64,000 nucleotides of DNA from an uncultured Actinomycetes bacterium. GTDB taxonomy: Bacteria > Actinomycetota > Thermoleophilia > RBG-16-64-13. The notes below the pieces were generated by a model. The model did no database searches. It had not been told where the DNA came from and saw only the letters and a program-made list of their open reading frames with translations. Shown piece by piece: positions 24,399 to 47,510 of the stretch; position 1 is the stretch's first letter; every line of letters begins with the position of its first letter. The stretch spans positions 302,486 through 366,485 of the forward strand of contig CAWFJE010000010.1 in NCBI GenBank assembly GCA_963816155.1, written 5' to 3'. Made by a program: the position numbers and the translations under genes.

Positions 24399-24401
24399 CA
24401 C

Positions 24402-27440: not shown

Positions 27441-27560
27441 CGGTCCTCGTCTCCCTCCCCCGCGAGCCCCACTTCACGCACACGCCGTGAGTAGTGCGAC
27501 CCGCGGCGCGCGCGACGCTATACTGACTTTCGAGTGACCCCTCAAGCCCGAGGAGGAGCG

Positions 27561-27890: not shown

Positions 27891-27901
27891 TCACCACCCA
27901 G

Positions 27902-27940
27902 TACCGACAAGACACGAACCCACTACCGACAAGACACGAG
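27902..27940. repeat. direct repeat: two copies of TACCGACAAGACACGA separated by 23 bp, immediately upstream of the amidohydrolase-2 gene
   Basis: Exact 16-mers at 27902-27917 and 27925-27940. Confidence 0.6.
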
Positions 27941-27956
27941 AGTCAAGGAAAGGCCC

Positions 27957-28979: not shown

Positions 28980-29013
28980 CCAGAGTCGCGCCCGGACCTG
29001 AGAGCATGAACGG

Positions 29014-29045
29014 CCCCGGGCCCGGCGACATCGCCGGGCCCGGGG
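29014..29045. terminator. bidirectional GC hairpin (CCCCGGGCCCGGCG-ACAT-CGCCGGGCCCGGGG) between convergent genes
   Basis: Perfect 14-bp inverted repeat. No U-tract. Confidence 0.45.
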
Positions 29046-29079
29046 CTTCGAGAAGGGATGTGATTCTGCAGGGGGCAGC

Positions 29080-29421
29080 TCAAGCCAGAGCCGCCACCCC
29101 CGTCTCGCCTGTGCGAATACGCAGGCACTCCTCCATCTCCAAGACGAATATCTTGCCGTCGCCGATGGTGCCCGTGTGTGCACCCCGCGTGATGGCGTCG
29201 ACCGTCTGCCACACCTTGGTGTTGCTCACCGCGATCTCGATCTTGATCTTGTGAAGTAGCCCTCCCCGTTCCACGTGGCTGCGATAGACCTCGGCCACAC
29301 CCTTCTGGCGGCCGCGGCCCATGACGTCGGAGACGGTCATCAGATTGATCTCTTCCTCGGTCAAGGCTTCGATCACAGAGTCCAGCCGGTCGGGTTGAAT
29401 GATTGCGATGACGTATTTCAC
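29080..29421 (-). CDS. glnB: nitrogen regulatory protein P-II family
   Basis: 113 aa: MKYVIAIIQPDRLD...GRGRQKG...VYRS...GDGKIFV...IRTGE. The T-loop Tyr is retained. GTG start with a GGAG ribosome-binding site. Confidence 0.85.
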   Translation of the reverse strand: MKYVIAIIQPDRLDSVIEALTEEEINLMTVSDVMGRGRQKGVAEVYRSHVERGGLLHKIKIEIAVSNTKVWQTVDAITRGAHTGTIGDGKIFVLEMEECLRIRTGETGVAALA

Positions 29422-29766
29422 TCGTGGCTCCTATCTGTTCCCTGCGTGGTGACCCGCGCGCTATCCGCTTCGAAGAGACCTGAGAGTCCACACACAGGCG
29501 CTCTGCCCTGATGCCGATGATAGCAACGTCGGCGAGAGCGACACGCGTGCCGAGCGTGAGTTGATTCTAGAAGAGAGAGGTCGGCCTTGCATCGTCCGGA
29601 AGACAAGACGTGCGGGCCAGCTTCTTCGCCATTTGTCCCAAGCCGGTCTGCGAAGCGTGACCCAGAGAGCACTCGCGACCCCCGTGAATGATGACCCGCA
29701 CGTACCAACTGAACGAGGGAGCTTATGCTAATGGCCAATCAACTGGGGCGGTGATATTCTGACAGC

Positions 29767-31416
29767 ATGCCTGTGACCGTCAGACAGATACTCCAACTGG
29801 ACGTGCTCCAGGATGCCAAGCTCCTCGCCGGTGAGGAGGGGCTGGATCGCCACATGGGATCCGTCACGGTGGGCGAGGTGCCCGACATCGCCGACTGGCT
29901 CTCGGGCGGTGAGATGGTGCTGTCCACCATGTTCGCCGTCAAGGGCGATGTCGGCCGCCAACTGGAGTTCTGTAGGCGAGTCATGTTGGCGGGGGCGGCG
30001 GCTCTTTTCGTCAAGACCACCCGCTTCTTGGAGAGCCTGCCCCCCGAGGTCATCGAACTGGCCGACAAACGGAAGTTCCCCATAGTCGAAGTGCCCCAAG
30101 GTCTTCGCTGGACCAAGCTCATGCAGGATGCCACTGAGGTGATCATCAACCAACAGGCTACGCAGTTGGAGAAGTCGCAGGAGATCCATCGGAACCTTCT
30201 CGGGGTGGTAATACGCGGCGGAGGCTGGCAAGAGTTGGCCGGGGAATCGTCGCGGTTACTGGAGGCGCCCGTGATCTTCCTGGACGTATCGCTGGAGGAA
30301 CTCTCCTCGGCGTCTCCCGGCGAGGGCACACTGAACCTCCAGGAATCCTTCCGCCGGCCCGACATCCGGGACAGGTTTCGGACACTGGGACGTAGTGGCC
30401 GCCTGTTTCACGTGCAAGAGCCCGACTTTGCCGGCATGTACGTCTTGCCCATAATCGCCGGCCACAGAACCCAAGGCTACATGTGCGCCCTCAGTGATCA
30501 TCCTGAACTCACGCGCATGGAGACGATGGTGCTCGAACACGCCGCCACGATCGCCACCCTGGAGATGGCGCAAGATAGGGTGCGATTCGAGACCGAGGTG
30601 CGGCTGAAGGGAGACTTCCTCGATGACCTCGTCAGCGGAGGCGGCGCGACACCAGCCTCCCTACTCAGGCGAGGTTCCTTTCTCGGTTGTGACCTCACGC
30701 AAGGAGCGACGGTCATCATCTTGGCCGTGGATGAGTTCGAGGGCTTCGTCTCCCGACATGGACTGGACCAAGAGGAGCTCGATCGGCGCGTGGAAAGGTT
30801 CTTCTCCCGCTGCTCCCGCTATGTGTCATCCGCCGAGGTGTCCTCGCTCGTGAGCCTCAAGTCGGGACACGTGGTGGTCTTCTTATGTGGCCGCAGCGCG
30901 CAGGAGTCGGCTACGGTGATTCGCATGACCAAAGTCCTCCAAGGCTTCGGTCAGACCGAGGCGGAGGTCAGTGTCTCTGCGGGGATCAGCGGCTTCATGG
31001 CCGACTCCTCCCAACTGGGCAGGGGCTATCAGGAGGCGCTGGTGGCTCTGAAAGTGAGCCGCAAACTCCACGGTCCAGGCACGTCCCTCCACTTCGGCGA
31101 CGTGGGCAGCTACCGCCTGCTGCTCGACATATGGGAGAGGGATCCCGAACAGGTCCGAGCGCTCTACGAGGAGTCCATCGGTCCCGTCGACCGCTACGAC
31201 GAGGCCAACGGCACGCATCTCACCCAGACGCTCATGACCTTTTTCGCCAACAACGAGAGCCTGACCAAGACGGCGTCTGAGCTCTATGCTCACCGCCACA
31301 CCGTCCGCTACCGGTTGGAGAAGATCGCCGAAGTCAGTGGACTGAGCGTATTCCAGACCGAGCACAAGGAGCGTCTGGGTCTGGGCCTCAAGGCCCGCAG
31401 CTTGTTCATCGACTGA
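29767..31416 (+). CDS. PucR/CdaR-family transcriptional regulator
   Basis: 549 aa with a C-terminal PucR-type HTH (...LTKTASELYAHRHTVRYRLEKIAEVSG...) and an N-terminal PucR-like region (LAGAAALFVK). Confidence 0.8.
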   Translation: MPVTVRQILQLDVLQDAKLLAGEEGLDRHMGSVTVGEVPDIADWLSGGEMVLSTMFAVKGDVGRQLEFCRRVMLAGAAALFVKTTRFLESLPPEVIELADKRKFPIVEVPQGLRWTKLMQDATEVIINQQATQLEKSQEIHRNLLGVVIRGGGWQELAGESSRLLEAPVIFLDVSLEELSSASPGEGTLNLQESFRRPDIRDRFRTLGRSGRLFHVQEPDFAGMYVLPIIAGHRTQGYMCALSDHPELTRMETMVLEHAATIATLEMAQDRVRFETEVRLKGDFLDDLVSGGGATPASLLRRGSFLGCDLTQGATVIILAVDEFEGFVSRHGLDQEELDRRVERFFSRCSRYVSSAEVSSLVSLKSGHVVVFLCGRSAQESATVIRMTKVLQGFGQTEAEVSVSAGISGFMADSSQLGRGYQEALVALKVSRKLHGPGTSLHFGDVGSYRLLLDIWERDPEQVRALYEESIGPVDRYDEANGTHLTQTLMTFFANNESLTKTASELYAHRHTVRYRLEKIAEVSGLSVFQTEHKERLGLGLKARSLFID

Positions 31417-31481
31417 TACCGTCTCCCCTCCTCCCCGCTTCCGCCGCCCGCTCTTCCTTGCGATTCCCGCAAAATGCGACC

Positions 31482-31503
31482 TTGTACTTATCCATATGTA
31501 CAA
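31482..31503. promoter_or_regulatory. palindrome TTGTAC-N10-GTACAA in an AT-rich stretch about 130 bp upstream of amt1; candidate operator
   Basis: Read directly from the sequence: cTTGTACttatccatatGTACAAtt. Confidence 0.4.
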
Positions 31504-31635
31504 TTCCGGTTGCCGCGCTTTCATACTGATGTAGGTGACGCCCTCCCTCATCCCAAGCCCTAATTGATTGGCATACCGTGGGCGGGTCGCCTTGCGGCGA
31601 TCGACCCGCACCGACCGCGCACAGGGAGTGTAAAC

Positions 31636-32874
31636 ATGGCAGGTATAGACACAGGAGATACGGCATGGATGCTTGTCAGCACGGCACTTGTCATGCTGAT
31701 GACTCCGGGACTGGCCTTCTTCTACGGAGGCTTGGTCAGGCGTAAGAACATACTCTCCATCATGATGCAGTGCTTCATGTTGATAGGCGTCATCAGCATC
31801 CAGTGGGTCCTGTTCGGCTACAGTCTGGCCTTCGGTCCCGACCACGCAGGATTGATAGGCGGACTGAGTTGGGCCGGGCTAAACGGCGTGGGGCTTGATC
31901 CCAACCCCGACTATGCCGCCACCATCCCCCACCAACTCTTCATGATCTTCCAGATGATGTTCGCCGTCATCACGCCGGCCCTCATCATCGGCGCCTTCGC
32001 CGAGCGGATGAAGTTCAGCGCCTTCCTGGTGTTCTCCTTCCTGTGGGCCACCATCGTCTACGATCCCATGGCCCACTGGGTATGGGGCGTGGGCGGCATC
32101 CTGCGCGAACTGGGCGCTCTCGACTTCGCAGGCGGCATCGTGGTGCACATCAGTGCCGGCATGGGCGCTCTGGCAGCGGCACTGTTTCTGGGAAAGAGAC
32201 GTGGGTATCCCGCCGATATGTCTCCCCCCCACAACCTCCCCTTCGCCATCCTGGGCGCGGCTCTGCTGTGGTTCGGCTGGTTCGGCTTCAACGCCGGTAG
32301 TGCTCTGGGCGCCAACGGCCTCAGCGTCTCCGCCTTCGTGGCCACGCACATGAGCGGGGCTGCAGCGGCGCTCGCCTGGGCCACGGTCGAGTGGGTGCGG
32401 GGCAAACGACCAACCGCGCTCGGCACCATTTCGGGGGCCATCGCCGGTTTGGCATGTATCACGCCCGCATCCGGCTTCGTCACACCCCTTGCGGCCATCG
32501 CCATCGGCCTCATAGCCGGCCTGGTGTGCTACGTGGCCGTGGTGGTCGTCAAAGCCAAGCTGGGCTACGACGACTCCCTCGACGCCTTCGGCGTGCATGG
32601 CATCGGGGGGGTGCTGGGCGTCCTGCTGGTTGGCGTCTTCGCCGCCCAAGCAGTCAACCCCGCCGGCGCCAACGGACTCATCCATGGAGAGGGACGCCAA
32701 CTCCTACTGCAGTTCATCGCCATCGCCGGCTGCACCGCCTATTCCTTCATACTCTCCTTCGGACTCCTCAAGCTCGTGGACAAGGTGGTCGGCCTGCGCG
32801 TCACCCCGCATCAGGAGAACATCGGTCTCGACCTGACGCAGCACAGCGAGTCCGCCTACACACTCGTGGGCTGA
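31636..32874 (+). CDS. amt: ammonium transporter, copy 1
   Basis: MAGIDTGDTAWMLVSTALVMLMTPGLAFFYGGLVRRKN... and ...GAFAERMKFSAF...DFAGG.VVHI.AG... are Amt/MEP signatures. The track ORF (31564) is over-extended at the 5-prime end. Confidence 0.95.
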   Translation: MAGIDTGDTAWMLVSTALVMLMTPGLAFFYGGLVRRKNILSIMMQCFMLIGVISIQWVLFGYSLAFGPDHAGLIGGLSWAGLNGVGLDPNPDYAATIPHQLFMIFQMMFAVITPALIIGAFAERMKFSAFLVFSFLWATIVYDPMAHWVWGVGGILRELGALDFAGGIVVHISAGMGALAAALFLGKRRGYPADMSPPHNLPFAILGAALLWFGWFGFNAGSALGANGLSVSAFVATHMSGAAAALAWATVEWVRGKRPTALGTISGAIAGLACITPASGFVTPLAAIAIGLIAGLVCYVAVVVVKAKLGYDDSLDAFGVHGIGGVLGVLLVGVFAAQAVNPAGANGLIHGEGRQLLLQFIAIAGCTAYSFILSFGLLKLVDKVVGLRVTPHQENIGLDLTQHSESAYTLVG

Positions 32875-33010
32875 CGATCCTACGAATGTACAAAATAGAC
32901 GTCCCGAGCTTGGATGTTGGGACATCGCCGCGAGCTTCCTTTGCGGGTGTAATAGTGCTGTCGCACGCGCCGTCGACAGGGGCCCAAGCCCCTCGGCAGT
33001 GCGACAGACA

Positions 33011-33538
33011 GCACCGACCGCGCACAGGGAGTGTAAACATGGCAGGTATAGACACAGGAGATACGGCATGGATGCTTGTCAGCACGGCACTTGTCATGCT
33101 GATGACTCCGGGACTGGCCTTCTTCTACGGAGGCTTGGTCAGGCGTAAGAACATACTCTCCATCATGATGCAGTGCTTCATGTTGATAGGCGTCATCAGC
33201 ATCCAGTGGGTCCTGTTCGGCTACAGTCTGGCCTTCGGTCCCGACCACGCAGGATTGATAGGCGGACTGAGTTGGGCCGGGCTAAACGGCGTGGGGCTTG
33301 ATCCCAACCCCGACTATGCCGCCACCATCCCCCACCAACTCTTCATGATCTTCCAGATGATGTTCGCCGTCATCACGCCGGCCCTCATCATCGGCGCCTT
33401 CGCCGAGCGGATGAAGTTCAGCGCCTTCCTGGTGTTCTCCTTCCTGTGGGCCACCATCGTCTACGATCCCATGGCCCACTGGGTATGGGGCGTGGGCGGC
33501 ATCCTGCGCGAACTGGGCGCTCTCGACTTCGCAGGCGG
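33011..33538. repeat. 528-bp tract 100% identical to 31608-32135 (5-prime UTR plus the first third of amt). Further identical blocks of about 110-130 bp alternate with diverged blocks through the gene
   Basis: Base-by-base comparison of the two amt loci in the window. Confidence 0.85.
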
Positions 33539-34274
33539 TACCGTGGTGCACATCAACGCCGGTATGGCCGCCCTCGCAGCCGCGCTCGTCATCGGCCGCC
33601 GCAAAGGCTATCCGGACACCTCTCCCCCCCACAACCTCCCCTTCGCCATCCTGGGCGCGGCTCTGCTGTGGTTCGGCTGGTTCGGCTTCAACGCCGGTAG
33701 TGCTCTGGGCGCCAACGGCCTCAGCGTCTCCGCCTTCGTGGCCACGCATCTGGGAGCAGCGGGTGCAGCCGTTGCCTGGGCCACCCTCGAGTGGATAACG
33801 CGCCGCCGGCCCACCGCGCTCGGTATCATCTCCGGCGCCGTGGCCGGCCTCGTCGCCATCACGCCCGCATCCGGCTTCGTCACACCCCTTGCGGCCATCG
33901 CCATCGGCCTCATAGCCGGCCTGGTGTGCTACGTGGCCGTGGTGGTCGTCAAAGCCAAGCTGAGCTACGACGACTCCCTCGACGCCTTCGGCGTGCACGG
34001 CATCGGCGGCATGGTGGGAGCGCTCCTCACAGGTCTCTGGGCTACAACGGTGATCAACCCGGCGGGCGCGGATGGCCTCTTTCACGGAAATCCTAAGCAA
34101 CTCCTGCTGCAGTTCATCGCCATCGCCGGCTGCGCCGCCTACTCCTTCATACTCTCCTTCGGGCTCCTCAAGCTCATCGACAAGGTAGTCGGCCTGCGCG
34201 TGACCACGGATCAGGAGAACATCGGTCTCGACCTGACGCAGCACAGCGAGTCCGCCTACACCATCGTCGCATAG
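33039..34274 (+). CDS. amt: ammonium transporter, copy 2 (tandem paralog)
   Basis: Same N-terminus as copy 1, with diverged middle and C-terminal blocks. The track ORF 32391..34274 is a spurious 5-prime over-extension. Confidence 0.95.
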   Translation: MAGIDTGDTAWMLVSTALVMLMTPGLAFFYGGLVRRKNILSIMMQCFMLIGVISIQWVLFGYSLAFGPDHAGLIGGLSWAGLNGVGLDPNPDYAATIPHQLFMIFQMMFAVITPALIIGAFAERMKFSAFLVFSFLWATIVYDPMAHWVWGVGGILRELGALDFAGGTVVHINAGMAALAAALVIGRRKGYPDTSPPHNLPFAILGAALLWFGWFGFNAGSALGANGLSVSAFVATHLGAAGAAVAWATLEWITRRRPTALGIISGAVAGLVAITPASGFVTPLAAIAIGLIAGLVCYVAVVVVKAKLSYDDSLDAFGVHGIGGMVGALLTGLWATTVINPAGADGLFHGNPKQLLLQFIAIAGCAAYSFILSFGLLKLIDKVVGLRVTTDQENIGLDLTQHSESAYTIVA

Positions 34275-34290
34275 CCGCGAGGAGACGAGA

Positions 34291-34632
34291 ATGAAATACA
34301 TCATCGCCATCATCCAGCCAGACCGTCTCGACGAAGTGATCGAAGCCCTCACCGACGCCGAGGTCAATCTCATGTCCGTGTCGGACATCATGGGGCGCGG
34401 ACGGCAGAAGGGCGTGGCTGAGGTCTACCGCAGCCACGTGGAGCGAGGAGGACTGCTGCGCAAGCTCAAGATCGAGATCGGAGTGAACGACGAGTTCGTC
34501 GACGCCGCCATGGCGGCCATCATCAGGGGCGCGAGGACCGGCAACATCGGCGACGGAAAGATCTTCGTCCTCGACCTCGACGATTGTGTGCGCATCCGCA
34601 CAGGCGAAACCGGTCCCGTCGCGATAGGATAG
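34291..34632 (+). CDS. glnK: P-II family protein directly downstream of amt (GlnK-type arrangement)
   Basis: MKYIIAIIQPDRLDEVIEALTDAEV...GRGRQKGVAEVYRSHVERGG...GDGKIFV...IRTGETG. GAGGAG ribosome-binding site. Confidence 0.9.
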   Translation: MKYIIAIIQPDRLDEVIEALTDAEVNLMSVSDIMGRGRQKGVAEVYRSHVERGGLLRKLKIEIGVNDEFVDAAMAAIIRGARTGNIGDGKIFVLDLDDCVRIRTGETGPVAIG

Positions 34633-36341: not shown

Positions 36342-39300
36342 ATGGCTACGCTTGGGATTGACATCGGCTGCATAAGCGTGAAGATCGCCCTTGTGGGCAC
36401 CACAGCAGAGCGGGACACCTTCACCGAGATAGCTGCATCTACCGATCTTTTTCAGGATCCGAACTGCGAGGGGCGGGTATCCCCCAGCCCTGGTTCGCCA
36501 CCTGTTCTGGCGACGAAGTACCGTCGCATCAAGGGTAGTCCGACGGAGACCGCTCGGGCGCTCCTTGAACAGGTCATCTCGGTCCTCCCTGAAGGGTTCG
36601 TGACCGCCGCGGGCGTCACGGGCACGGGTGGCCGCCTCGCCGGAGTCCTGTTGGACCTCCCCTATGAGAACGAGTTCAAAGCCATCGCCAGAGCCGTAGG
36701 CACGCTACATCCTGATATCAGCACCGTCTTCGAGATGGGCGGCGAGACCTCCAAATTCATCCGTTTGGAGACCGATGCGGCTTCCGGTCGCGTAGGCATC
36801 GCCGACTACGGCACCAACGGAGACTGCGCGGCTGGGACCGGCTCCTTCATGGACCAGCAGGCCAATCGCCTCCTCTACGACATCGAGGACGTGGGCGACA
36901 TCGTAGGGGGCGCGGGCAAGGCCGCCTCTATCGCGGGACGTTGCTCGGTCTTCGCGAAGTCGGACATGATCCACGCCCAGCAGAAGGGCTACCGGCCCCC
37001 TGAGGTCTTGAAAGGCCTCTGCAACGCGGTGGTGCGTAACTACCGCGGCACCATAACCAAGGGCAAAGACGTCAGCGGACGCGTGGCCTTCATCGGCGGG
37101 GTGGCGGCAAACCAAGGTGCCGTGGTCGCCCTGCGCGAGGCCTTCGAGATGGACGAAGAGAGCCTGGTCATCCCCGCCTACTACGCCTGGATGGGAGCCA
37201 TCGGCTCGGCCCTCACCGCGGCCGACGAGATGGCCGGCGTGGAGATGGTCACCATCAACGCCGACCGGCTGGCCCAGGGTCAGGCCGCGGAGTTCGAGAC
37301 CAGCGAAGCTCTGTCCATGGAGCGCGTGATCTTACTGCGTGACCGCGTGAAACCGTACGAGTTCCCGTCCGAGGGTAAGGTCGGGGTCTACATGGGCATC
37401 GACGTCGGCTCGGTCTCCACGAATCTCGTGCTCCTCGACGAAGCCGGTGAGGTGGTCAAAGAGATCTATGTCAAGACCGACGGCCGCCCCGTCGAAGTGG
37501 TCAACAAGGGTCTGGCGGACATCTGGAACGAGATGGGACCACGGCTGGACATCTTGGGCGTCGCCACCACCGGATCGGGCCGCGAACTCATCGGTGAACT
37601 TCTGGGCGCGGACACCGTCAACGACGAGATCACCGCGCACAAGACGGGAGCGACCTTCATCGGGCGCAAGCTCATCGACCGAGTCCCCGACACCATCTTT
37701 GAGATCGGTGGACAGGACTCCAAGTTCATCAGTCTGCAGGACGGTATCGTAGTCGACTTCGCCATGAACGAGGCCTGCGCCGCCGGCACGGGCTCCTTCC
37801 TCGAAGAGCAGGCGGAGAAGCTGGGCATCAGCATCATCGGGGAGTTCGCCGAACTGGCCCTGTCATCGCCGGCGCCCGTGCGCCTTGGCGAACGCTGCAC
37901 CGTCTTCATGGAGCGCGACGTCAACTCCTACCTGCAGCGAGGAGCGAACAAAGAGGCCCTGGTGGCCGGACTCGCCTACTCCATCGCCTACAACTACCTC
38001 AACCGTCTCGTGGGGCAGCGACACATCGGTGACACCATCTACTTCCAGGGTGGTACGGCCTACAACGACGCCGTGGCTGCGGCCTTCAGCATGATCTTGG
38101 GCAAAGATATCGTCGTACCTCCCCACAACGGCGTGGTGGGAGCCATAGGGGTGGCGCTTCTGGCTCGCGAGAAGATGTCGGCCACGGGTGCGCCCTCCCG
38201 GTTCCGGGGATGGGATATCGAACAGGTCGACTACAAAGTGCGCGAGTTCACCTGCAAGGGTTGCAGCAACGAGTGTGACATCCGCCAGTTCACCATCGGC
38301 GAGGAGAAGACCTACTGGGGCGACAAATGCTCCGACCGCTACCGCAAACGAGCCAAGGTCGACAAGGAGCCCGTCATTCGGGACCTTGTCGCTTTCAGGG
38401 ACGCCCTCTTCTGCTCCTACGTCACCGAGTCGGAGGACACCTCGCTCCTGCTGCGCAGCGGCGCGGACGCCCCCAGGGGCACCATGGGCATCCCACGGAC
38501 CATGTATACGTATGACCGCCTGCCTTTCTGGGCCACCTTCTTCAAGACCTGCGGGTTCGACATCGCGCTCTCACGTCAGACCGACAAGAACATCCGGAGC
38601 ATGGGCATCGAGCACACGGTGGCCGAGCCTTGCTTCCCCATCCGAGTGGCCCACGGCCACGTGGTCGAACTCCTGGAAGCGGGTGTGGACCATGTGTTCG
38701 TCCCCAACCAGTTGAACGAAGAGACCGATGACCCCGGCATCGAGTCCCACGCCTGCCCCTGGGGACAGACCCTCCCCCACGTGATGCGTTTGGCCCCGCG
38801 CTTCGAGGACCAGGGCTCTCGCTTCTTCACCCCCACCATCCATTTCCGGCGCGGACCTGAGTATGTACGCCGGACCCTGCAGGCCGACATGCGAAGGTTC
38901 GGAGTCCCCGGGCACTTGGTCGAACAGGCCCTCAAGGAAGCGTACGAGGCCCAGGCCGACTTCCGTGCCCGGTTGCTGAGCGCAGGAGCCGACGCTCTGT
39001 CGACCCTTGAAGAGCACGACGAACTCGGCATCGTCCTTGTCGGACGTCCGTACAACATCTACGACGCGGGCGTCAACATGGATATCCCCGCCAAGCTGCG
39101 CAATTACTACGGGGTGAACATCATCCCCCTGGAGTTCCTCCCCATCTGGGGCAGGGACACTCGGGAGGTCACCCCCAACATGTTCTGGAACTACGGGCGC
39201 AAGATCCTGCAGACGGCTCAGGTGGTGGCTGATCACCCCAAACTGCACATCATCTACATGACCAACTTCAAGTGCGGGCCGGACTCATATGTGAAGCACT

Positions 39301-39467
39301 TCATGGGTGCCGCCTCCTCCGAGCCCTTCCTTGTGCTCCAATTCGATGAGCACACCAATGACGCCGGTGCCATGACCCGTTGCGAGGCCTATCTCGACAG
39401 CAAGGGATTCCTGCGCTGGTGGGCCCGAGGAGACAAGGCGACGAGGGAAACGGTGAGGGAGACCTAG
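36342..39467 (+). CDS. large fusion protein: two BadF/BadG/BcrA/BcrD (HgdC-like) ATPase 'activase' domains plus a C-terminal Cys-rich dehydratase-component-like domain
   Basis: Two ASKHA ATPase starts (LGIDIGCISVKIALVG; MGIDVGSVSTNLVLLD). Each carries the HgdC cluster-helix motif CAAGTGSF and a second Cys (RCSVFAKSD / RCTVFMERD). The C-terminal region carries FTCKGCSNECD...KCSDRYRK. The true start is the ATG at 36342 (MATLGIDIG); the track start at 36180 is over-extended. Confidence 0.8.
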   Translation: MATLGIDIGCISVKIALVGTTAERDTFTEIAASTDLFQDPNCEGRVSPSPGSPPVLATKYRRIKGSPTETARALLEQVISVLPEGFVTAAGVTGTGGRLAGVLLDLPYENEFKAIARAVGTLHPDISTVFEMGGETSKFIRLETDAASGRVGIADYGTNGDCAAGTGSFMDQQANRLLYDIEDVGDIVGGAGKAASIAGRCSVFAKSDMIHAQQKGYRPPEVLKGLCNAVVRNYRGTITKGKDVSGRVAFIGGVAANQGAVVALREAFEMDEESLVIPAYYAWMGAIGSALTAADEMAGVEMVTINADRLAQGQAAEFETSEALSMERVILLRDRVKPYEFPSEGKVGVYMGIDVGSVSTNLVLLDEAGEVVKEIYVKTDGRPVEVVNKGLADIWNEMGPRLDILGVATTGSGRELIGELLGADTVNDEITAHKTGATFIGRKLIDRVPDTIFEIGGQDSKFISLQDGIVVDFAMNEACAAGTGSFLEEQAEKLGISIIGEFAELALSSPAPVRLGERCTVFMERDVNSYLQRGANKEALVAGLAYSIAYNYLNRLVGQRHIGDTIYFQGGTAYNDAVAAAFSMILGKDIVVPPHNGVVGAIGVALLAREKMSATGAPSRFRGWDIEQVDYKVREFTCKGCSNECDIRQFTIGEEKTYWGDKCSDRYRKRAKVDKEPVIRDLVAFRDALFCSYVTESEDTSLLLRSGADAPRGTMGIPRTMYTYDRLPFWATFFKTCGFDIALSRQTDKNIRSMGIEHTVAEPCFPIRVAHGHVVELLEAGVDHVFVPNQLNEETDDPGIESHACPWGQTLPHVMRLAPRFEDQGSRFFTPTIHFRRGPEYVRRTLQADMRRFGVPGHLVEQALKEAYEAQADFRARLLSAGADALSTLEEHDELGIVLVGRPYNIYDAGVNMDIPAKLRNYYGVNIIPLEFLPIWGRDTREVTPNMFWNYGRKILQTAQVVADHPKLHIIYMTNFKCGPDSYVKHFMGAASSEPFLVLQFDEHTNDAGAMTRCEAYLDSKGFLRWWARGDKATRETVRET

Positions 39468-40835
39468 GTGGATATCGAGACCGCGACCAAGGGCGGCAAC
39501 GGCAAGACCGAGCGGGAAGCTGCTCTGGCCGCCCTGGCAGCCGTTCCCAAACCGGTGGCTGCCCAGGGTGCCGACACAAGCCCGGTCGAGACCAGCATCG
39601 AGGTCAAGGACCGCACCCTCTGGCTCTGCCGCATGCCCTACGGGGGCTCGCGCATGCTGGCCGCCGCTTTCTGCTCCATCGGTCTCGACACCCGAGTGAC
39701 TCCCGAGGAGGATTCCCGCACCCTGGAACTGGGGGGCAAGTACACCTCGGGCGACGAGTGCTACCCCCAGCGCATCGTTCTCGGCGATTACATGAAACTC
39801 CTGGAGGACGAGAGCCTCGACCCCAAAAAGACGGCGTTCCTCCTCCCCACGGCCAACGGCCCCTGCCGTTTCGGCCAGTACGTGGGCCTACTGCGCCGCG
39901 TCCTTGACGAACAGGGCTATGAGGATGTGGCCATCCTTTCGTTCACTTCCGCCGACGGCTACGCCGGCGTCGGCGAGCAGGCCTCGGAACTCATCCGCAC
40001 CGCTTGGCGCGCGGTCTTGGTGCAGGACATCCTCATGAAGTTGTTGCTCATGACCCGACCCTACGAGGTCGAGACCGGAGAGACCGACAGGGTCTACCAC
40101 CAGTCGCTCGACCTCATGGCCGGTATCGTCGCCCGGCAAGGCGTGGGCAAGAAGGAACAGATGGCCGACCTCAAGGCGGGGCTTCTGCGATGCAAGCGCT
40201 CCTTCCTCGACATCCCGATCGAGAAGGAGGATCGCCCTCTTATCGGTATTGTGGGCGAGATCTTCTGCCGCCTCAACACCTTCGCCAACAACGAACTCAT
40301 CCGGCACGTGGAGGCCCAGGGAGGCGAGTGCTGGCTGGCGGGAGTCGGTGAATGGGTGTGGTACACCAACGAGGAGGCCTTCCGGCGCCATCGGGAGGAA
40401 AGAAGCCGTCGCAGCAAGGACTGGCTGAAGACCTACATCACCGCGCGCATCATGCACGGCGATGAGAACGCCCTCATGGCCGACTTCCACGACGTGTTCG
40501 CACACCACCCTGAGCCGCACGTGACCAAGGTGCTCGAATACGCCAAGCCGTACCTGCCTCAGACGGGCGCGCTCGGCGAGATGGTGCTCTCCACCGGGGG
40601 CGCCGTCTACCTCTACAACCAGGGCGCGGACGGTGTCATCGATATCAGCCCCTTCACGTGCATGAACGGCATCGTCACCGAGGCCATCTATCCTCGGGTG
40701 AGCAAGGATCACGACACCATCCCCATCCGGGTCTTCTACTTCGACGGCACTCACAGCGACCTCGATCGCGACGTGGGCATCTTCTTGGAACTGGCGAAGA
40801 CCTACCAGCGCCGCAAGAAGATAGCGCGGCCGTAG
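39468..40835 (+). CDS. DUF2229 / 2-hydroxyacyl-CoA-dehydratase-component-like partner protein of the activase fusion
   Basis: 455 aa. Its GTG start immediately follows the upstream stop (coupled). Conserved Cys/aromatic motifs are present (GDECYPQRI, TANGPCRFGQY, SPFTCMNGI). Assignment is by architecture and pairing, not by alignment. Confidence 0.55.
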   Translation: MDIETATKGGNGKTEREAALAALAAVPKPVAAQGADTSPVETSIEVKDRTLWLCRMPYGGSRMLAAAFCSIGLDTRVTPEEDSRTLELGGKYTSGDECYPQRIVLGDYMKLLEDESLDPKKTAFLLPTANGPCRFGQYVGLLRRVLDEQGYEDVAILSFTSADGYAGVGEQASELIRTAWRAVLVQDILMKLLLMTRPYEVETGETDRVYHQSLDLMAGIVARQGVGKKEQMADLKAGLLRCKRSFLDIPIEKEDRPLIGIVGEIFCRLNTFANNELIRHVEAQGGECWLAGVGEWVWYTNEEAFRRHREERSRRSKDWLKTYITARIMHGDENALMADFHDVFAHHPEPHVTKVLEYAKPYLPQTGALGEMVLSTGGAVYLYNQGADGVIDISPFTCMNGIVTEAIYPRVSKDHDTIPIRVFYFDGTHSDLDRDVGIFLELAKTYQRRKKIARP

Positions 40836-40885: not shown

Positions 40886-43525
40886 ATGTTCGCCCGGCTA
40901 GGCTCGTTCGCCGTCCGTTTCCGCTGGCTCATCATCGCCGCCTGGCTGGTGGTGGCCGCGGTCCTCACCGCGGTGGCACCGAACATCAACGACGTGGCCG
41001 TCAGCGACCAGCGCGCTTTTCTCCCCGCTTCCGCGCCCAGCCTCGACGCCAACGAGACGGTCAAGCAGTACTTCCCCGATCGCATCTCGCCCTCCACAGC
41101 GGTGGTGGTGATCGACGCCGGACAGGGAGGGCGGGCCGACGAGGGTGTGGCAGGCTCCTTCGTGAACGACCTGAGCTCGTGGTTGAGCGGTCCCGACGCC
41201 CCCTCCGGAGTCGACCAAGTGCTCTCCCCCACTCTCGGCGACGAACAGACCAAGGCGGGCCTCATCAGTCCCGACGGTCAGGTGGCCTTGATGCTCGTGC
41301 GCTTCAGCGCCGTGGGTACCGACCCGACCACCAAGGAAGCCATCGCGGCCATCAATGATCACTTGGAGCAGGCCGCCCCGGAGGTGAAGGTCTACCTCAC
41401 CGGAGACGGACCCATCCTGGCTGCGTACGATACTGCGTCCAAGAGCAGCCTCGACTCCACCACATGGATCACCATCCTGCTCGTCGTGGCTATCCTGCTT
41501 ATCATCTACCGCTCTCCGGTCAGCCCCATCATCCCTCTGGCCACCATCGGACTGGCGTACGTGATCTCCAGGGGGGTGGTGGCCTTCCTTGGCTCCGGCC
41601 CGCTGACCATCTCCATGTACACGAACGTCTTCTTGATCGTGGTCCTGTTCGGGGCGGGCACGGACTACTGCCTGTTCCTCATCAGCCGCTTCAGGGAGGA
41701 GATGTCCACCGTGGATATCGCCGCCCCCGCGGTCAAGACCACGGTACGCACCGTCGGCGAGACCATCGCTTCGAGCGCGGGCACGGTCATCGTGGGACTG
41801 GCCATGATGGCCGCCGCCGAGTTGGGCCTCTACAACACCACCGGCCCGAGCATAGCCATCGGCGTGGCCATCGCCCTACTGGCCGGGCTGACCTTCACGC
41901 CCGCCCTCCTCACCGTGCTTGGTCACTACGCGTTCTGGCCCCGCAAGCCGCGCCGCATCGGCACGCGTGGTCTGTGGTTCTCCTGGTCGGCGAAGGTGGT
42001 CGGGCGGCCGCTCATCGCCCTCCTCGTGCCGGTGATAGTACTGGTTCCGCTGGCCATCTATGGAACCGGCCTCGCCCGCGACTTCGACCTGCTGGGCGAC
42101 CTGCCCAAGAGCGACGAGACGAGGCAGGGTTTCGACGTGCTGGCCGAGCACTTCGGTCCCGGCCAGATGGCGCCGCTCAACGTGGTGGCCGTGGATGCTG
42201 AGGGCTTCAGCACCCCGCAGGGACTGGCCGACATCGAGGAACTCCAGGCGCTGCTGCAGGCTGTTCCGCACGTGACGGCCGTACGCAGTTTCGCCGGTTC
42301 ACTGCCGGACAAGAGCACCCTCAGCGTCGCCGACCAGTTACAGGTACAGGCCCAAGCGGTCAGACAGGGCCTGACCGCACTCGAGACGGCAACAGCGGCC
42401 TTGGGTTCAGGCGGGGTCGCCGGGGCGGCTGCGGATGACGCCATCACCGCCGCCGCCGCCCAACTCACCGACCTGCACGGATATCTCACCCAGTTGGGCG
42501 CTGCCTACCCAGAGATCCTCACCGATCAAGGCTACACGGACTCCGTGAGGGCTCTCGAGGAACTGGCCGTGCTGGCCGGTGAGGTGAAAGGCGAGCCGGG
42601 AGCGATCGGCGCGGCCGTCACCGCCCGCCTGCAGACCCTGGCGACCGGGCTTGAGTCTCTGCAGCAGAGCTTCGCCGCCCGCCCAGAGGCCGTCCTGCTG
42701 CCCGACCTCTACTTGGACAGCAACGAGGGGCTCAAAGCCTTGCGAGACACCTACATCTCCGCAGACGGAACGGCCACTCGACTCCAGGTTGTACTGGACG
42801 CCGGCCCCTACACCGCGGAAGCCATCGCCGCCACGGAGGCGATCCGCGCGACCCTTGCTACGGCGGGCTTCGATGCTGCAGTAGAGGGTGACTCAGCCGT
42901 GCTGCTCGATCTCCAAAACGCTTCCAGCCGCGATATGAACCGTGCCTTGATCTATGTGCTCGGCGGCATCTTCATCGTCCTCCTGCTGCTCCTGCGGGCC
43001 CTGATCTCGCCCATCTACCTCATCCTCACGATCCTCCTGTCCTACGCAGCCACACTCGGCGTGGTGCGACTCCTTTTCGTAGACATACTGGGCGCGGCGG
43101 GCATAGTCTGGTGGGTGCCCATGTTCATGTTCGTCATGCTCGTGGCGCTGGGCATGGACTACAACATCTTCCTCATCGGCCGCGTGAAGGAGGAGGTGGT
43201 CACCAACGGCACGAGGGCCGGCACCCGATTGGCTCTCGCGCGCACAGGCGGGATCATCACCTCGGCCGGCATCATCATGGCCGGCACGTTCGCCAGTATG
43301 CTGAGCGCCAGTCTGATGGGGCTCCTCCAGATAGGCTTCGCCGTGGCGTTCGGGGTCCTGCTGGACACCTTCGTCGTGCGCACGACACTGGTGCCGGCCA
43401 TCATCGTGCTCTTGGGCCGCTGGAACTGGTGGCCATCGCGACGGGGTGCAGACACAAAGTCCGGTGGAGAACCGCTCGGCGGTGCCACCGAGGAACCCGC
43501 CGGGGACTCACCGCCCATCTCCTGA
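40886..43525 (+). CDS. mmpL: MMPL-family (RND superfamily) membrane transporter
   Basis: 879 aa with two 6-TM bundles plus large periplasmic loops. Motifs ...YRSPVSPIIPLATIG... and ...GAGTDYCLFLISRFREE... are MmpL hallmarks. Confidence 0.85.
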   Translation: MFARLGSFAVRFRWLIIAAWLVVAAVLTAVAPNINDVAVSDQRAFLPASAPSLDANETVKQYFPDRISPSTAVVVIDAGQGGRADEGVAGSFVNDLSSWLSGPDAPSGVDQVLSPTLGDEQTKAGLISPDGQVALMLVRFSAVGTDPTTKEAIAAINDHLEQAAPEVKVYLTGDGPILAAYDTASKSSLDSTTWITILLVVAILLIIYRSPVSPIIPLATIGLAYVISRGVVAFLGSGPLTISMYTNVFLIVVLFGAGTDYCLFLISRFREEMSTVDIAAPAVKTTVRTVGETIASSAGTVIVGLAMMAAAELGLYNTTGPSIAIGVAIALLAGLTFTPALLTVLGHYAFWPRKPRRIGTRGLWFSWSAKVVGRPLIALLVPVIVLVPLAIYGTGLARDFDLLGDLPKSDETRQGFDVLAEHFGPGQMAPLNVVAVDAEGFSTPQGLADIEELQALLQAVPHVTAVRSFAGSLPDKSTLSVADQLQVQAQAVRQGLTALETATAALGSGGVAGAAADDAITAAAAQLTDLHGYLTQLGAAYPEILTDQGYTDSVRALEELAVLAGEVKGEPGAIGAAVTARLQTLATGLESLQQSFAARPEAVLLPDLYLDSNEGLKALRDTYISADGTATRLQVVLDAGPYTAEAIAATEAIRATLATAGFDAAVEGDSAVLLDLQNASSRDMNRALIYVLGGIFIVLLLLLRALISPIYLILTILLSYAATLGVVRLLFVDILGAAGIVWWVPMFMFVMLVALGMDYNIFLIGRVKEEVVTNGTRAGTRLALARTGGIITSAGIIMAGTFASMLSASLMGLLQIGFAVAFGVLLDTFVVRTTLVPAIIVLLGRWNWWPSRRGADTKSGGEPLGGATEEPAGDSPPIS

Positions 43526-43840
43526 GGAGCGAGGCACCTGCTCAACCGTCGACCCGGATTCCTGCTTTTTTAGAGGTTGAACACTTCCCCTTGGCCAATC
43601 TCTCAATAATGGTATTCATATGTAACAAGGTGAGTCTGAGTTCTTCATTTCTCTGGCGTTTGCGGGCCTTCTGTGCTAGCTTCATGGAGTCAGCGCGGCC
43701 TTGGTGAGCCGGGGGGAAAGACCGTTCTTGAGAGTACGACTGACGTGCGCGCCGCTTGCGCGCGCACGGTCCGACCGCTCTGAATCCTCCGCCACCCCGA
43801 GGTGTTGACCGTCATCTCACGCGACCAGAGGGAGTGCAGT

Positions 43841-46483
43841 ATGGCTGAAGAGCAGATGACAGCAGGGGGGCCGGGAGGGCCCAAGTACAAGCCCGACCGC
43901 ACCGTCGTCCGTGCCCTCGCCCTTGGAGGCCTTCTGGGCGGTTGCGACCCGGCGGCCGTGGACGTCTCCGATGGCAAGATCGTGCGCGTCCGCCCCATGC
44001 ACTTCGATTGGAAATACCCCCGCGACAGCTTCCGCTCCTGGAAGTTCGAGCGTGATGGCCATACCCTCGAGTCCAACTACAAGGGCATGCCCTCGCCCTG
44101 GTCACTGTCCTACAAGAAGCGCACCTACTCGCCAAACCGCATCCAGTACCCCATGAAGCGCGTTGATTTCGATCCCGACGGCGAGCGCAATCCCCAGAAC
44201 CGCGGCAAGAGTAAGTACGTCCGTATCTCCTGGGACGAGGCCACCGACCTCATAGCGTCAGAGGTCAGGCGCATCATCGGCACCTACGGTCCTCTGGCCA
44301 TCCTTGCCCAGGGCGACGGCCACGGCGAGTGCAAGACCATCAACACGCCGCACGGGCACCAGGCCCGACTGCTGGAGATGCTGGGCGGCTTCACCCAGCA
44401 GGTGCGGAACCCCGATAGCTGGGAAGGCTTCTACTGGGGCTCTAAGCACGTTTGGGGCCAGGGCATCGTCGGGATGATGGACCCGTCCGACAACTGCATG
44501 AAGGACATCACCGAGAACAGCGAGTTGGTGCTCTTCTGGGGTTGCGACCCCGAGACCACTCCCTGGGGCTTCGTGGGCCAGTTCGCCAGCCGGTTGTGCT
44601 ACTTCTGGACTGAGTGCGGCATCGAGCAGGTGTATGTCTGTCCCGACCTCAACTACGGCGCAGCCGTGCACGCCGACAAGTGGATCCCCGTGTGGCCGAA
44701 CACCGACGCGGCTCTGCAGTTGGCCGTCATCTACACCTGGCTCAAGGAAGACACCTGGGAGAAAGAGTACATCGCGACCCACGCCGTGGGCATGGACCAA
44801 GTCATCGCATACGTGATGGGCGACGAAGACGGCATCCCCAAGACCCCGGAATGGGCGGCCGAGAAGTGCGGGGTCCCTCCCTACACCATCAAGGCCCTCG
44901 CGCGTGACATGGCCAATAAGGTCCACACCTGGGCGCACTACTTCGGCGGTAGCTACGCCCGCGGTCCCTACAGCCACGAGCCCGCCCGCCTGGAATGCAT
45001 CATGCTGGGCATGCAGGGACTGGGCGGCCCCGGCCGCCATCAGGTCCAGATCTCTTACGGTGGCATGCCCAGGCCGGAGTTGATCAGGAGCACCCGCTTC
45101 TTCAATCCGCAACTCTCCGAGCGTCTCACCAAACCCACCCAGACCACCATCCGTGCCTGGGGCAAGCAGCTCATTCCCAAGACCCTCATCCACAAGGCCA
45201 TCCTGGATCCGCCGCTGGTCTTCTACGGCAACGGCGGTATCGAAGAACCGGTATCCGACCAGTTCGTCAAGTACGAGTATCCCCTGCCCAAGGAGAAGGG
45301 CGGCACCGAGATCCACATGATGTGGACCGATACGCCCTGTCGGATCACCTGCTGGAACTGCGGTAATGAGACCATCATGGCCGAGCGTAGTCCCAAGATA
45401 GAGTTCATCGTGGCCCAGCATCCCTGGCTTGAGAACGACTGCCTCTACGCCGATGTCATCCTGCCGACGAACACCAACATGGAAGTCGACGACATAGTCA
45501 CGAACACTCGGCAGGGGACTCAGCACCACAGCGTCATCCTCCTCCATAAGGCCATCGAACCGGTGGGCGAGTCGAAGAGCGACTACGAAGCCGTCCTCGA
45601 AGTGGCCAACAAGCTGGGCAAAGGGCTGGAGTTCAGCGAGGGCAAGAGCATCAGGGACCTCCAGCAAGAGGTCTTCTACAACATGAACCTCGACACCAAG
45701 ATCAGCTGGGACGACTTCGAAGAGAACCAGTACGTGATCCTGCAGACGGTCGAGGGCTGGGAAGACGACGTCGTGGGCCTGCGGCCCTTCTACGACGATC
45801 CCGAGAAGAACCCCCTGCCCACGCCGTCCGGCAAGCTGGAGTTCTTCTCAGCGGACCTCGCCAAGCACTTCCCCTGCGATGACGAGCGTCCGCCCATTCC
45901 CAAGTGGGTCGAAAAAAGCGCCATGCATGACGAGCGGCGTGGCAGTTGGCGCGCCAAGGCCTACCCGCTCCTGCTCATGTCCAACCACGGTCGCTGGCGC
46001 GTCCACTCCCAGGCGGACGACATCCCCTGGAGCCGTGAAGTGGTCACCTGCAAGGTTATGGGTTGGGACGGCTACATGTACGAACCGGTGTGGATCCATC
46101 CCTCCGACGCTGAAGCGCGAGGCATCAAGATGGGCGACATCGTCATGGTTCACAACGAGCGGGGCATCGTGCTCTGCGGTGCGCGCGTCTGGGAGCGTAT
46201 CTTCCCCGGCACAGCCTATGTCGATCACGGCGCCCGGCACGACCCCATCATCCCGGGCAAGGTGGACCGTGGTGGCGCCATCAACACCATCTCCGGCGAC
46301 TGGATATCGTCCAAGAACGCCGTCGGCCAGGCCACCAGTGGTTATCTGGTGGAAGTCAGCGCCTTACCTCCGGGCCTGATGGAACAGTGGAGAAGAGACT
46401 ATCCGGACGCCTTCGAGCGCCCCTATGACCCGGCCGCCGGGTTGCGGTTCGAAGCATGGGTGACCAAAGGGGGTGCCGAGTGA
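43841..46483 (+). CDS. molybdopterin (bis-MGD) oxidoreductase, pyrogallol-hydroxytransferase-like alpha subunit; cytoplasmic, with no TAT signal and no N-terminal Fe-S motif
   Basis: 880 aa. N-terminal ...DGKIVRVRPMHFDW...YPMKRVDFDPDGERNPQNRGKSKYVRISWDEATD...YGPLAIL... follows the transhydroxylase alpha pattern. There is no CxxCxxxC and no RR motif. GGGAG ribosome-binding site. Confidence 0.75.
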   Translation: MAEEQMTAGGPGGPKYKPDRTVVRALALGGLLGGCDPAAVDVSDGKIVRVRPMHFDWKYPRDSFRSWKFERDGHTLESNYKGMPSPWSLSYKKRTYSPNRIQYPMKRVDFDPDGERNPQNRGKSKYVRISWDEATDLIASEVRRIIGTYGPLAILAQGDGHGECKTINTPHGHQARLLEMLGGFTQQVRNPDSWEGFYWGSKHVWGQGIVGMMDPSDNCMKDITENSELVLFWGCDPETTPWGFVGQFASRLCYFWTECGIEQVYVCPDLNYGAAVHADKWIPVWPNTDAALQLAVIYTWLKEDTWEKEYIATHAVGMDQVIAYVMGDEDGIPKTPEWAAEKCGVPPYTIKALARDMANKVHTWAHYFGGSYARGPYSHEPARLECIMLGMQGLGGPGRHQVQISYGGMPRPELIRSTRFFNPQLSERLTKPTQTTIRAWGKQLIPKTLIHKAILDPPLVFYGNGGIEEPVSDQFVKYEYPLPKEKGGTEIHMMWTDTPCRITCWNCGNETIMAERSPKIEFIVAQHPWLENDCLYADVILPTNTNMEVDDIVTNTRQGTQHHSVILLHKAIEPVGESKSDYEAVLEVANKLGKGLEFSEGKSIRDLQQEVFYNMNLDTKISWDDFEENQYVILQTVEGWEDDVVGLRPFYDDPEKNPLPTPSGKLEFFSADLAKHFPCDDERPPIPKWVEKSAMHDERRGSWRAKAYPLLLMSNHGRWRVHSQADDIPWSREVVTCKVMGWDGYMYEPVWIHPSDAEARGIKMGDIVMVHNERGIVLCGARVWERIFPGTAYVDHGARHDPIIPGKVDRGGAINTISGDWISSKNAVGQATSGYLVEVSALPPGLMEQWRRDYPDAFERPYDPAAGLRFEAWVTKGGAE

Positions 46484-47307
46484 AAGCCTTCGCCATCGAC
46501 CTCTCCATCTGCAACGGCTGCTACTGCTGCCAGGTGGCCTGCAAGGACGAGCACTGTGGTCAGGACTGGCTGCCTTACGCTAAGGCTCAGCCCGAGACAG
46601 GTCAGTTCTGGCTCGGTATCAATGAGATGGTGCGCGGCCAGGTGCCCAAGGTGAAGATCACCTACGTGCCCAACATCTGCCAGCACTGCGCCGACGCGCC
46701 CTGCATCGCAGCCTGCCCCGTGGAAGGCGCCGTATACCAGCGCGATGACGGCATGGTCATCATCGACCCGGAGAAGTGCACCGGCTGCAAGCTGTGCGTG
46801 GACGTATGCCCCACGAAGTCCATCTTCTTTAGCGACAACTTCGGCATCGCCCAGAAGTGCACCGCCTGCTCGCACCTGCGTGACAACGACCCCGAGACTT
46901 GGGCGAACACCACGCGCTGCGCGGACGCCTGCCCCACCGGGGCGCTGCGCTTCGGCGACGAGGAGGAGTTCGCGGACTTCATCAAAGAGGCGGAATACCT
47001 TTGCCCTGAGCTAGAGGGCAAGACGCGGGTGTACTACAAGAACCTGCCCAAGAAGTTCGTGGCCGGCACTCTCTTCGACCCCATTGAGAACGAGGTCATC
47101 GTCGGAGCGACCGCCACCCTCACGGACGATGAGTCGGGCGAGACCTTCACGGCCACCACCGACCACTACGGCGACTTCTGGTTCAAGAACCTCAAGGACG
47201 ACCGCACCTTCACCTTGACCCTAGCCAAAGATGGCAAGAGCAAGACCATAGAGGGCGTCTCCACCGCGATCGACCTGAACGTGGGCGACATCCCCTTGGA
47301 GATGTAG
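46480..47307 (+). CDS. 4Fe-4S ferredoxin-type beta subunit of the transhydroxylase-like molybdoenzyme, with C-terminal beta-sandwich domain
   Basis: Its GTG overlaps the alpha-subunit stop. Four Cys clusters (CNGCYCCQVAC; CQHCADAPCIAACP; CTGCKLCVDVCP; CTACSHL...CADACP). ...GAVYQRDDGMVIIDPEKC... and ...TRVYYKNL... match the BthL-like pattern. A C-terminal roughly 90-aa non-FeS domain is present. Confidence 0.75.
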   Translation: MKAFAIDLSICNGCYCCQVACKDEHCGQDWLPYAKAQPETGQFWLGINEMVRGQVPKVKITYVPNICQHCADAPCIAACPVEGAVYQRDDGMVIIDPEKCTGCKLCVDVCPTKSIFFSDNFGIAQKCTACSHLRDNDPETWANTTRCADACPTGALRFGDEEEFADFIKEAEYLCPELEGKTRVYYKNLPKKFVAGTLFDPIENEVIVGATATLTDDESGETFTATTDHYGDFWFKNLKDDRTFTLTLAKDGKSKTIEGVSTAIDLNVGDIPLEM

Positions 47308-47341
47308 TCTGCCGGAAACGGAATCCTCGGAGACGTAGCGA

Positions 47342-47379
47342 AGAAGGCCCCTCTTCCCCGCCGGGAAGAGGGGCCTTCT
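47342..47379. terminator. bidirectional 17-bp perfect hairpin (AGAAGGCCCCTCTTCCC-CGCC-GGGAAGAGGGGCCTTCT) between the convergent beta-subunit and xdhC genes
   Basis: Read directly from the sequence. Confidence 0.55.
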
Positions 47380-47510
47380 CATTCGCGTAGCAGTGACCGT
47401 CAGACGGCCCTGGGGCCGCGCAGGCGATGGGCGGACCGGGTGACCCTGTCGCAGCCGGGGAGGGCTGGTGCAGCCTGAGATGGCCGACCCGGCCGGCGGG
47501 GTCGGACCGA

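Follow-up and report, generated by a model that had tools for sequence, protein, structure and literature searches.

A split gene pair with a conserved MMPL neighbour as a probable divergent member of the PlsA/PlsR-Ger family of ether-lipid enzymes

Introduction

According to Jackson et al. (2021), as cited in PMC12838417 and PMC8788747, the plsA-plsR genes of Clostridium perfringens (CPE1195/CPE1194; Q8XL48/Q8XL47), a 4,199-bp operon, encode an anaerobic plasmalogen synthase. The single-gene PlsA proteins of Enterococcus faecalis, Lactococcus cremoris and Bifidobacterium longum subsp. suis led to plasmalogens in Escherichia coli, and the domains of PlsA have been labelled Act1, Act2, Red1 and Red2 (PMC12838417; PMC9702350). 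Ger ('modified PlsA', glycerol ester reductase) of Thermotoga maritima (Tmari_0479; AGL49404) and Desulfatibacillum alkenivorans (SHJ90043) gave 1-alkyl glycerol ethers in E. coli, solely under anoxia, and its 'BBD' core, two PF01869 domains plus PF09989, is conserved in all alkyl-ether producers (PMC13159169). In this study, we compared these systems with two adjacent genes, open reading frame (ORF) A and ORF B, at positions 36342-40835 of a 64-kb stretch of contig CAWFJE010000010.1; the window, below, means this whole stretch. Our results suggest that the pair is probably a divergent, split member of the PlsA/PlsR-Ger family and would thus make ethers from membrane glycerolipids by acting on their sn-1 acyl ester.

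The products of the PlsA/PlsR and Ger types have been established by heterologous expression in E. coli (PMC12838417, PMC13159169, PMC8788747, PMC9702350). The validated members come from Firmicutes, Actinobacteria, Thermotogae and Deltaproteobacteria, and all of them are sn-1 ether producers (PMC12838417, PMC13159169). The chemistry proposed for PlsA/PlsR consists of two successive one-electron reductions of the ester, followed by protonation and dehydration (PMC8788747). PlsA and Ger cannot at present be separated by sequence, and Ger has no diagnostic motif (PMC13274423); the homolog of an anammox planctomycete (Kuenenia) has been placed with the 'modified PlsA' type (PMC8788747).

Results

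Gene pair and domain architecture

ORF A ends in TAG, and the GTG start of ORF B is the very next base (39468), with a Shine-Dalgarno-like AGGGAG close on its 5' side. The features of the pair are as follows.

36342-39467, plus strand: ORF A, plsA-like gene, 1041 aa, ATG start, with the order Act1, Act2, Cys motif, Red1
36342-37232, plus strand: activase domain 1, aa 1-297 of ORF A, with Cys162 and Cys201 (PF01869 / TIGR00241)
37389-38180, plus strand: activase domain 2, aa 350-613 of ORF A, with Cys479 and Cys519 (alignment to HgdC, 1hux)
38253-38330, plus strand: CxxCxxxC...C motif (Cys638, 641, 645 and 663) between Act2 and Red1, invariant in 57 sequences
38481-39401, plus strand: Red1, aa 714-1020 of ORF A, DUF2229, with Cys764, Cys805 and Cys978; fold of the catalytic subunits of benzoyl-CoA reductase (BCR) and 2-hydroxyacyl-CoA dehydratase (HAD)
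39468-40835, plus strand: ORF B, plsR-like gene, 455 aa, GTG start; equals Red2, with Cys98, Cys133 and Cys398 and the BCR/HAD catalytic-subunit fold

Both products have identical entries of 1041 and 455 aa in a public protein collection (P0001 and P0121), and more than 100 homologs of ORF A have equal length and 64-88% identity. Pfam searches of ORF A showed PF01869 (BcrAD_BadFG) twice (E 4e-65) and PF09989 (DUF2229) at aa 714-931 (E 8e-55), while NCBIfam assigned TIGR00241, 'acyl-CoA dehydratase activase'. ORF B gave one sub-threshold DUF2229 match in Pfam and nothing else.

The translation of ORF A carries the motifs NGDCAAGTGSF and GRCSVF in activase 1 and NEACAAGTGSF and ERCTVF in activase 2. 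Activase 1 aligned with HadI (4eht) and MbdQ, cluster Cys included. Activase 2 aligned with HgdC (PDB 1hux) at E 1.6e-30, placing Cys479 and Cys519 on the [4Fe-4S] ligands Cys127 and Cys166; the Cys pairs of both activases thus align with HgdC Cys127/Cys166 and with the HadI equivalents. All four residues (Cys162, Cys201, Cys479 and Cys519) were 100% conserved in the family alignment (n=57). These alignments suggest that the four Cys form the set needed for an intramolecular [4Fe-4S] cluster bridging the two domains.

C-terminal to the second activase, ORF A contains CKGCSNEC...KCSDRYRK. The four Cys of this linker motif are invariant in the 57 sequences, Clostridium PlsA and E. faecalis PlsA included, and the motif is a candidate additional Fe-S or Zn site.

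A sequence profile of ORF B against the PDB found no real solved relative, and its fold was seen by structure comparison only. The AlphaFold model of ORF B had a pLDDT of 87 and a pTM of 0.86, with aa 1-44 disordered. In the structure comparison, Red1 and Red2 matched only catalytic subunits of HAD, BCR or DCCP, namely HadBC, BzdNO and MbdON, with DCCP among the best; their identity to the solved HAD and BCR catalytic subunits was 10-13%. Profile-profile comparison of Red1 with Red2 gave 96.7% (E 4.5e-10), and their three Cys superposed in the alignment. Judged by these profiles, the two Red domains are paralogous. The first 44 residues of ORF B (39468-39599) form an Ala/Pro-rich leader that is unconserved and predicted to be disordered, and its position corresponds to the inter-domain linker of the fused homologs.

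These results bear on a preliminary description of the locus, made from the sequence alone. Its account of a 1041-aa protein with two activases of the BadF/BadG/BcrA/BcrD family agrees with the two PF01869 matches and TIGR00241, and its 455-aa partner does start at the base after the ORF A stop. Every Cys motif that it quoted, including GDECYPQ, GPCRFGQY and SPFTCMNG of ORF B, is present in the two translations, and the alignment of the four activase Cys with the HgdC ligands is consistent with the bridged [4Fe-4S] cluster that it considered possible. Of the domain models that it named, PF01869 and PF09989 were found in ORF A, and PF06050 in neither protein. It had counted a lack of dehydratase-like or DUF2229 homology against its proposal; DUF2229 is present in ORF A, and both Red1 and Red2 have the HAD/BCR fold, so that the proposal is not refuted on this ground.

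Similarity to PlsA and PlsR

Reference loci were retrieved with the primers published in PMC12838417, a Clostridium sp. locus (L002) from genomes and an E. faecalis plsA locus (L011) from metagenomes. The published reverse primers had no match within 1-2 mismatches in the retrieved loci, and the loci were instead confirmed from the lengths of their genes, the clusters to which their products belong and the identities given in the literature. L002 encodes a PlsA of 975 aa and a PlsR of 420 aa over exactly 4,199 bp, as published, and its PlsR shares a 90% cluster with BAB80900.1 of C. perfringens str. 13. L011 spans 4,248 bp and encodes 1415 aa, also as published. Identity between the two loci was 50% in the PlsA part and 41% in the PlsR part, inside the published ranges (PMC12838417).

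In BLASTP, ORF A was collinear with both references over about 980-1000 aa, at 28% identity to Clostridium PlsA (aa 54-1020, E 3e-113) and 29% to its E. faecalis counterpart (E 3e-114). The alignments of ORF B, 260-388 aa long, reached 24% over 388 aa with Clostridium PlsR (E 6e-32) and 27% with the C-terminal region of the E. faecalis protein (E 1e-29). Clostridium PlsR mirrors ORF B in Pfam, with a weak match to positions 15-67 of the DUF2229 profile. No other PlsA/PlsR-like sequence was present in the 64-kb window.

In the family alignment of 57 sequences, 54 fused representatives stood beside E. faecalis PlsA and two joined pairs, ORF A with ORF B and Clostridium PlsA with PlsR. It showed 100% conservation of 14 Cys: A162/201, A479/519, A638/641/645/663, A764/805/978 and B98/133/398. 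Cys98, Cys133 and Cys398 of ORF B were also invariant in 30 stand-alone PlsR-like proteins, the PlsR of str. 13 included. A search with ORF B (E<=1e-3) returned 2,395 representative clusters, and many of the matches were the last ~400 residues of proteins of 1,350-1,480 aa. Because homologs of ORF B so often form the C-terminus of fused proteins, ORF A and ORF B appear to be functionally tied. The pair was kept in all relatives examined that had a readable ORF B.

Like ORF A and ORF B, the C. perfringens PlsA/PlsR system is divided into two genes, with an identical junction and gene order, and it has a common Pfam signature, collinear alignment and all 14 family-invariant Cys. It differs in the activase-2 motif, which is CSSGCGSF in Clostridium and CAAGTGSF in ORF A, in the gene that follows the pair, a two-component system in Clostridium and an MMPL gene here, and in the 44-aa disordered leader of ORF B, which distinguishes it from Clostridium PlsR. 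The PlsA proteins of E. faecalis (Q835P9/EF1327), L. cremoris and B. longum subsp. suis agree with the pair in domain order and in the conserved Cys, but each is one polypeptide of about 1415-1640 aa, whereas two genes are used here. As a separate observation, the window and C. perfringens belong to distant clades despite their common split junction, which suggests repeated fission or fusion.

Position in the family

In the trimmed alignment, the window sequence had an identity of 26% to each of the two validated PlsA proteins, against 30-41% to the fused representatives. A neighbor-joining tree, in which the validated members were limited to Clostridium and E. faecalis PlsA, placed these two on a separate long branch and the window as the sister of a single large clade that consists of fused proteins. 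Membership in the plasmalogen-forming PlsA/PlsR clade was rejected on this tree, in which the window groups with fused environmental proteins.

The named relatives were proteins from metagenome-assembled genomes (MAGs) of Planctomycetota/Phycisphaerae, Candidatus Brocadiia, Acidobacteriota and Aminicenantia, with one Actinobacteria MAG. ORF A was 34-43% identical to these proteins, which were themselves 26-30% identical to Clostridium PlsA. The closest homologs (66-88%) were Thermoleophilia or Actinobacteria MAG proteins, and no cultured producer of ether lipids was among the hits of the homology searches for relatives, whose names went no further than the MAG level. Nor did the cluster names of ten fused relatives yield any information. 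Most likely, the host is a Thermoleophilia-like actinobacterium that is anaerobic and uncultured.

Ger has its BBD core in common with ORF A, which, scored against PlsA, lies inside the homolog limits of PMC13159169 by a wide margin. Ger proteins are fused, have small PF06050 matches and make saturated alkyl ethers, whereas ORF A and ORF B are split and lack PF06050. The use of such small Pfam matches to tell PlsA from Ger gave an ambiguous answer for ORF A and ORF B and was set aside. Since the Kuenenia homolog is counted as 'modified PlsA' and the window lies nearer to the Planctomycetota proteins, the pair leans weakly towards the Ger type. The product may be either a vinyl or an alkyl ether.

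The MMPL gene and other neighbours

A third gene follows the pair at a distance of 50 bp.

40886-43525, plus strand: MMPL-family RND transporter gene (PF03176, E 1.6e-120)

The order ORF A, ORF B, MMPL was kept in the Thermoleophilia-like relatives L003, L004, L005/L006 and L021, with the other flanks differing, and the MMPL gene is probably the third gene of the unit. The identities of these relatives were 70%, 71% (L021), 74% and 82%. It was absent beside the pair in the checked relatives at 64-67% identity. This conservation suggests a functional link between the transporter and the enzyme pair, and since the MMPL gene stays with the pair while the other neighbours change, the linkage points to a lipid. 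We found no literature linking MmpL with plsA or Ger.

The upstream neighbour is a CitMHS_2 permease in Pfam, a family which we take to belong to the ArsB/NhaD-type ion-transporter superfamily. The permease label of the preliminary description was thus roughly right, as was its MMPL gene downstream; its statement that the flanks give no hint of the substrate did not hold, given the retention of the MMPL gene.

In L021 (8166-11291; 71% identity), small ORFs stand in place of an intact plsR-like gene, and the MMPL gene is cut short. As several genes are broken in this long-read metagenome assembly, frameshift errors seem a better account than true decay. In a 66% relative (L009/L010), a radical SAM/SPASM gene of 460 aa without a specific NCBIfam family lies at 695-2077 on the plus strand, about 4 kb upstream of the pair.

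The remaining neighbours were as follows.

19833-34632: nitrogen-assimilation block with both GOGAT subunits (large, small), glutamine synthetase, a regulator of the PucR type, the ammonium transporter Amt and P-II
43802-48542: DMSO-reductase-family molybdoenzyme (893 aa), 4Fe-4S dicluster subunit with a CarboxypepD_reg-like domain, and an XdhC-type maturation gene (minus strand)
49886-51589, minus strand: 567-aa ORF without a Pfam or NCBIfam match, overlapping an opposite-strand 449-aa ORF (50060-51409)

The Amt ORF has 627 aa with the Amt domain at aa 226-623 only, and its listed start is probably too far upstream. The same DMSO-reductase-family/dicluster pair follows the MMPL gene in L003. 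Both the nitrogen-assimilation and the DMSO-reductase-family neighbours look unrelated to ORF A and ORF B. GC content was uniform across the window, and scans of the window for promoters, terminators and tRNAs gave nothing informative.

Discussion

Judged by its sequence, the product of ORF A and ORF B is an ATP-driven iron-sulfur radical enzyme of the BCR/HAD type, as are the oxygen-sensitive enzymes of the PlsA/PlsR-Ger family. The features of the PlsA/PlsR-Ger type found here are tandem activases with Cys pairs, a Cys motif followed by DUF2229, an adjacent Red2 and collinearity with validated members. The preliminary description was right in kind in proposing an ATP-dependent radical (ketyl-type) enzyme. 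It went too far in calling the fused architecture essentially unstudied and the system uncharacterised, as this is the architecture of PlsA/PlsR and Ger, whose products have been established by heterologous expression. It had also taken a match to a characterised enzyme with a known substrate as grounds for giving up its proposal, and such a match exists at the family level only (PlsA/PlsR-Ger). The system is thus of a known kind, and its conserved MMPL neighbour is the one feature for which we found no prior report.

Several points weigh against an ether-lipid role. Identity to validated PlsA and PlsR is low (24-29%), and the neighbor-joining tree puts the window outside the Firmicutes PlsA clade, so that strict orthology is not supported. 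PlsA and Ger are indistinguishable by sequence (PMC13274423), and which kinds of cluster are bound, how the electron travels and what the MMPL protein does are points that we infer. No other lipid-biosynthesis gene lies near the pair, which has nitrogen assimilation upstream and the molybdoenzyme downstream, and no literature report connecting Thermoleophilia with ether lipids was found.

It is very unlikely that the pair is instead a classical 2-hydroxyacyl-CoA dehydratase or a benzoyl-CoA-reductase-type enzyme acting on a soluble CoA thioester. Such an enzyme would suit the matches of the activases, with E values of 1e-29 to 1e-30, to HgdC, HadI and MbdQ, the fold that the Red domains share with HadBC, BzdNO and MbdON, and the naming of homologs in databases as 'acyl-CoA dehydratase activase' or '2-hydroxyacyl-CoA dehydratase'. 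However, no PF06050 (HGD-D) match was found in ORF A (E<=0.01) or ORF B (E<=10), the NCBIfam equivalogs of BCR (BcrA/BcrD/BzdQ) scored 81-123 bits against cut-offs of 313-578, and no CoA-transferase, 2-hydroxyacid dehydrogenase or aromatic-degradation gene lies nearby; on these three grounds we consider a CoA-thioester substrate so improbable. The identity of only 10-13% to the HAD and BCR catalytic subunits, none of which the profile of ORF B finds by sequence, also argues against it. A HgdAB/HadBC-type dehydratase was rejected since PF06050 is absent, the activator is a fused tandem and the likeness is at the fold level only (10-12% identity), and a class I benzoyl-CoA reductase (BcrABCD/BzdNOPQ) since the equivalog models were not reached. 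To our knowledge, among characterised proteins, a fused double activase followed by CxxCxxxC...C and DUF2229 is known solely from PlsA and Ger.

Actinobacterial MMPL proteins export diverse envelope lipids, and the pair might belong to a functionally distinct third branch of BBD plus Red2 proteins that reduces or dehydrates another ester or carbonyl in place of a glycerophospholipid sn-1 ester, for example in a non-glycerol envelope lipid exported by the MMPL protein, or on a small molecule, as DCCP does. The deep branching away from validated PlsA (26% identity), an MMPL linkage specific to the window's clade and the place of DCCP among the best structural matches would all fit such a branch, which we nevertheless regard as unlikely. 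The pair has its whole architecture and each of the universally conserved Cys in common with the validated ether-lipid enzymes, those enzymes already cover four phyla and carry out a single type of reaction (PMC12838417, PMC13159169), and the relatives at 64-67% identity without the MMPL gene indicate that this gene is not essential to the enzyme. We give hardly any credence to the idea that the genes are inactive remnants or that their pairing is an accident of gene calling. No support for it was found, the oddities being the unconserved 44-aa leader of ORF B and the fragmented ORF B of L021, and against it stand intact ORFs with all catalytic Cys, more than 100 equal-length homologs (64-88%) with conserved synteny, and confident AF2 models.

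Related enzymes with separate activators show what the pair has in common with the wider superfamily. HgdAB with HgdC, HadBC with HadI, BzdNOPQ, MbdONQP and DCCP/DCCP-R have the same activase fold, cluster ligands, catalytic-subunit fold and ATP-driven injection of a low-potential electron, but they use a separate homo- or heterodimeric activator, act on CoA thioesters or small molecules and lack the CxxCxxxC...C linker motif. DCCP, which is among the best structural matches, has a single catalytic subunit of ~420 aa whose six Cys hold an [8Fe-9S] cluster, and its reductase is a homodimer of its own, whereas Red1 and Red2 keep three invariant Cys each and the reductase is fused.

If the pair is an ether-lipid enzyme of the PlsA/PlsR-Ger family, as we consider likely, the following mechanism can be proposed. 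The two activase domains would form an intramolecular, HgdC-like pseudo-dimer holding one [4Fe-4S] cluster on Cys162, 201, 479 and 519, which a ferredoxin or flavodoxin would reduce. ATP hydrolysis would then drive a low-potential electron into the Red core, possibly via the four-Cys site. Red1 and Red2 would act as alpha/beta-like subunits, each with a [4Fe-4S] cluster on three Cys that leaves one iron site open for the ester carbonyl. The carbonyl would become a ketyl-type radical. Along the lines proposed for PlsA/PlsR (PMC8788747), a second electron, protons and dehydration would then lead to a plasmalogen with its 1-alkenyl ether; if reduction went further, the product would be a 1-alkyl ether like that of Ger. 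The lipid, as substrate or as product, would probably be carried across the membrane or out of it by the MMPL protein. That the split pair and the MMPL gene together form one module that makes and moves an ether lipid in anaerobic Thermoleophilia-like actinobacteria is a tentative proposal, and we hold it to be doubtful as a whole.

The analysis changes the annotation of these genes from an 'acyl-CoA dehydratase activase' and a hypothetical protein to a probable ether-lipid synthase, and it predicts that ether lipids are made by an uncultured anaerobic actinobacterial lineage. We know of no purified PlsA/PlsR or Ger enzyme and of no solved structure, and this naturally split, GC-rich version could be of use as a further system for biochemical work. 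As a conserved neighbour, the MMPL gene offers a testable lead on the movement of ether lipids or their precursors and, if the module exists, would be the first tie of an RND/MMPL transporter to ether-lipid handling. The prediction also bears on the question of which anaerobes make the bacterial ether lipids of the environment: if it is true, this uncultured lineage would be an unrecognised bacterial ether-lipid producer, possibly of the alkyl ethers sought as a source of environmental branched ether lipids.

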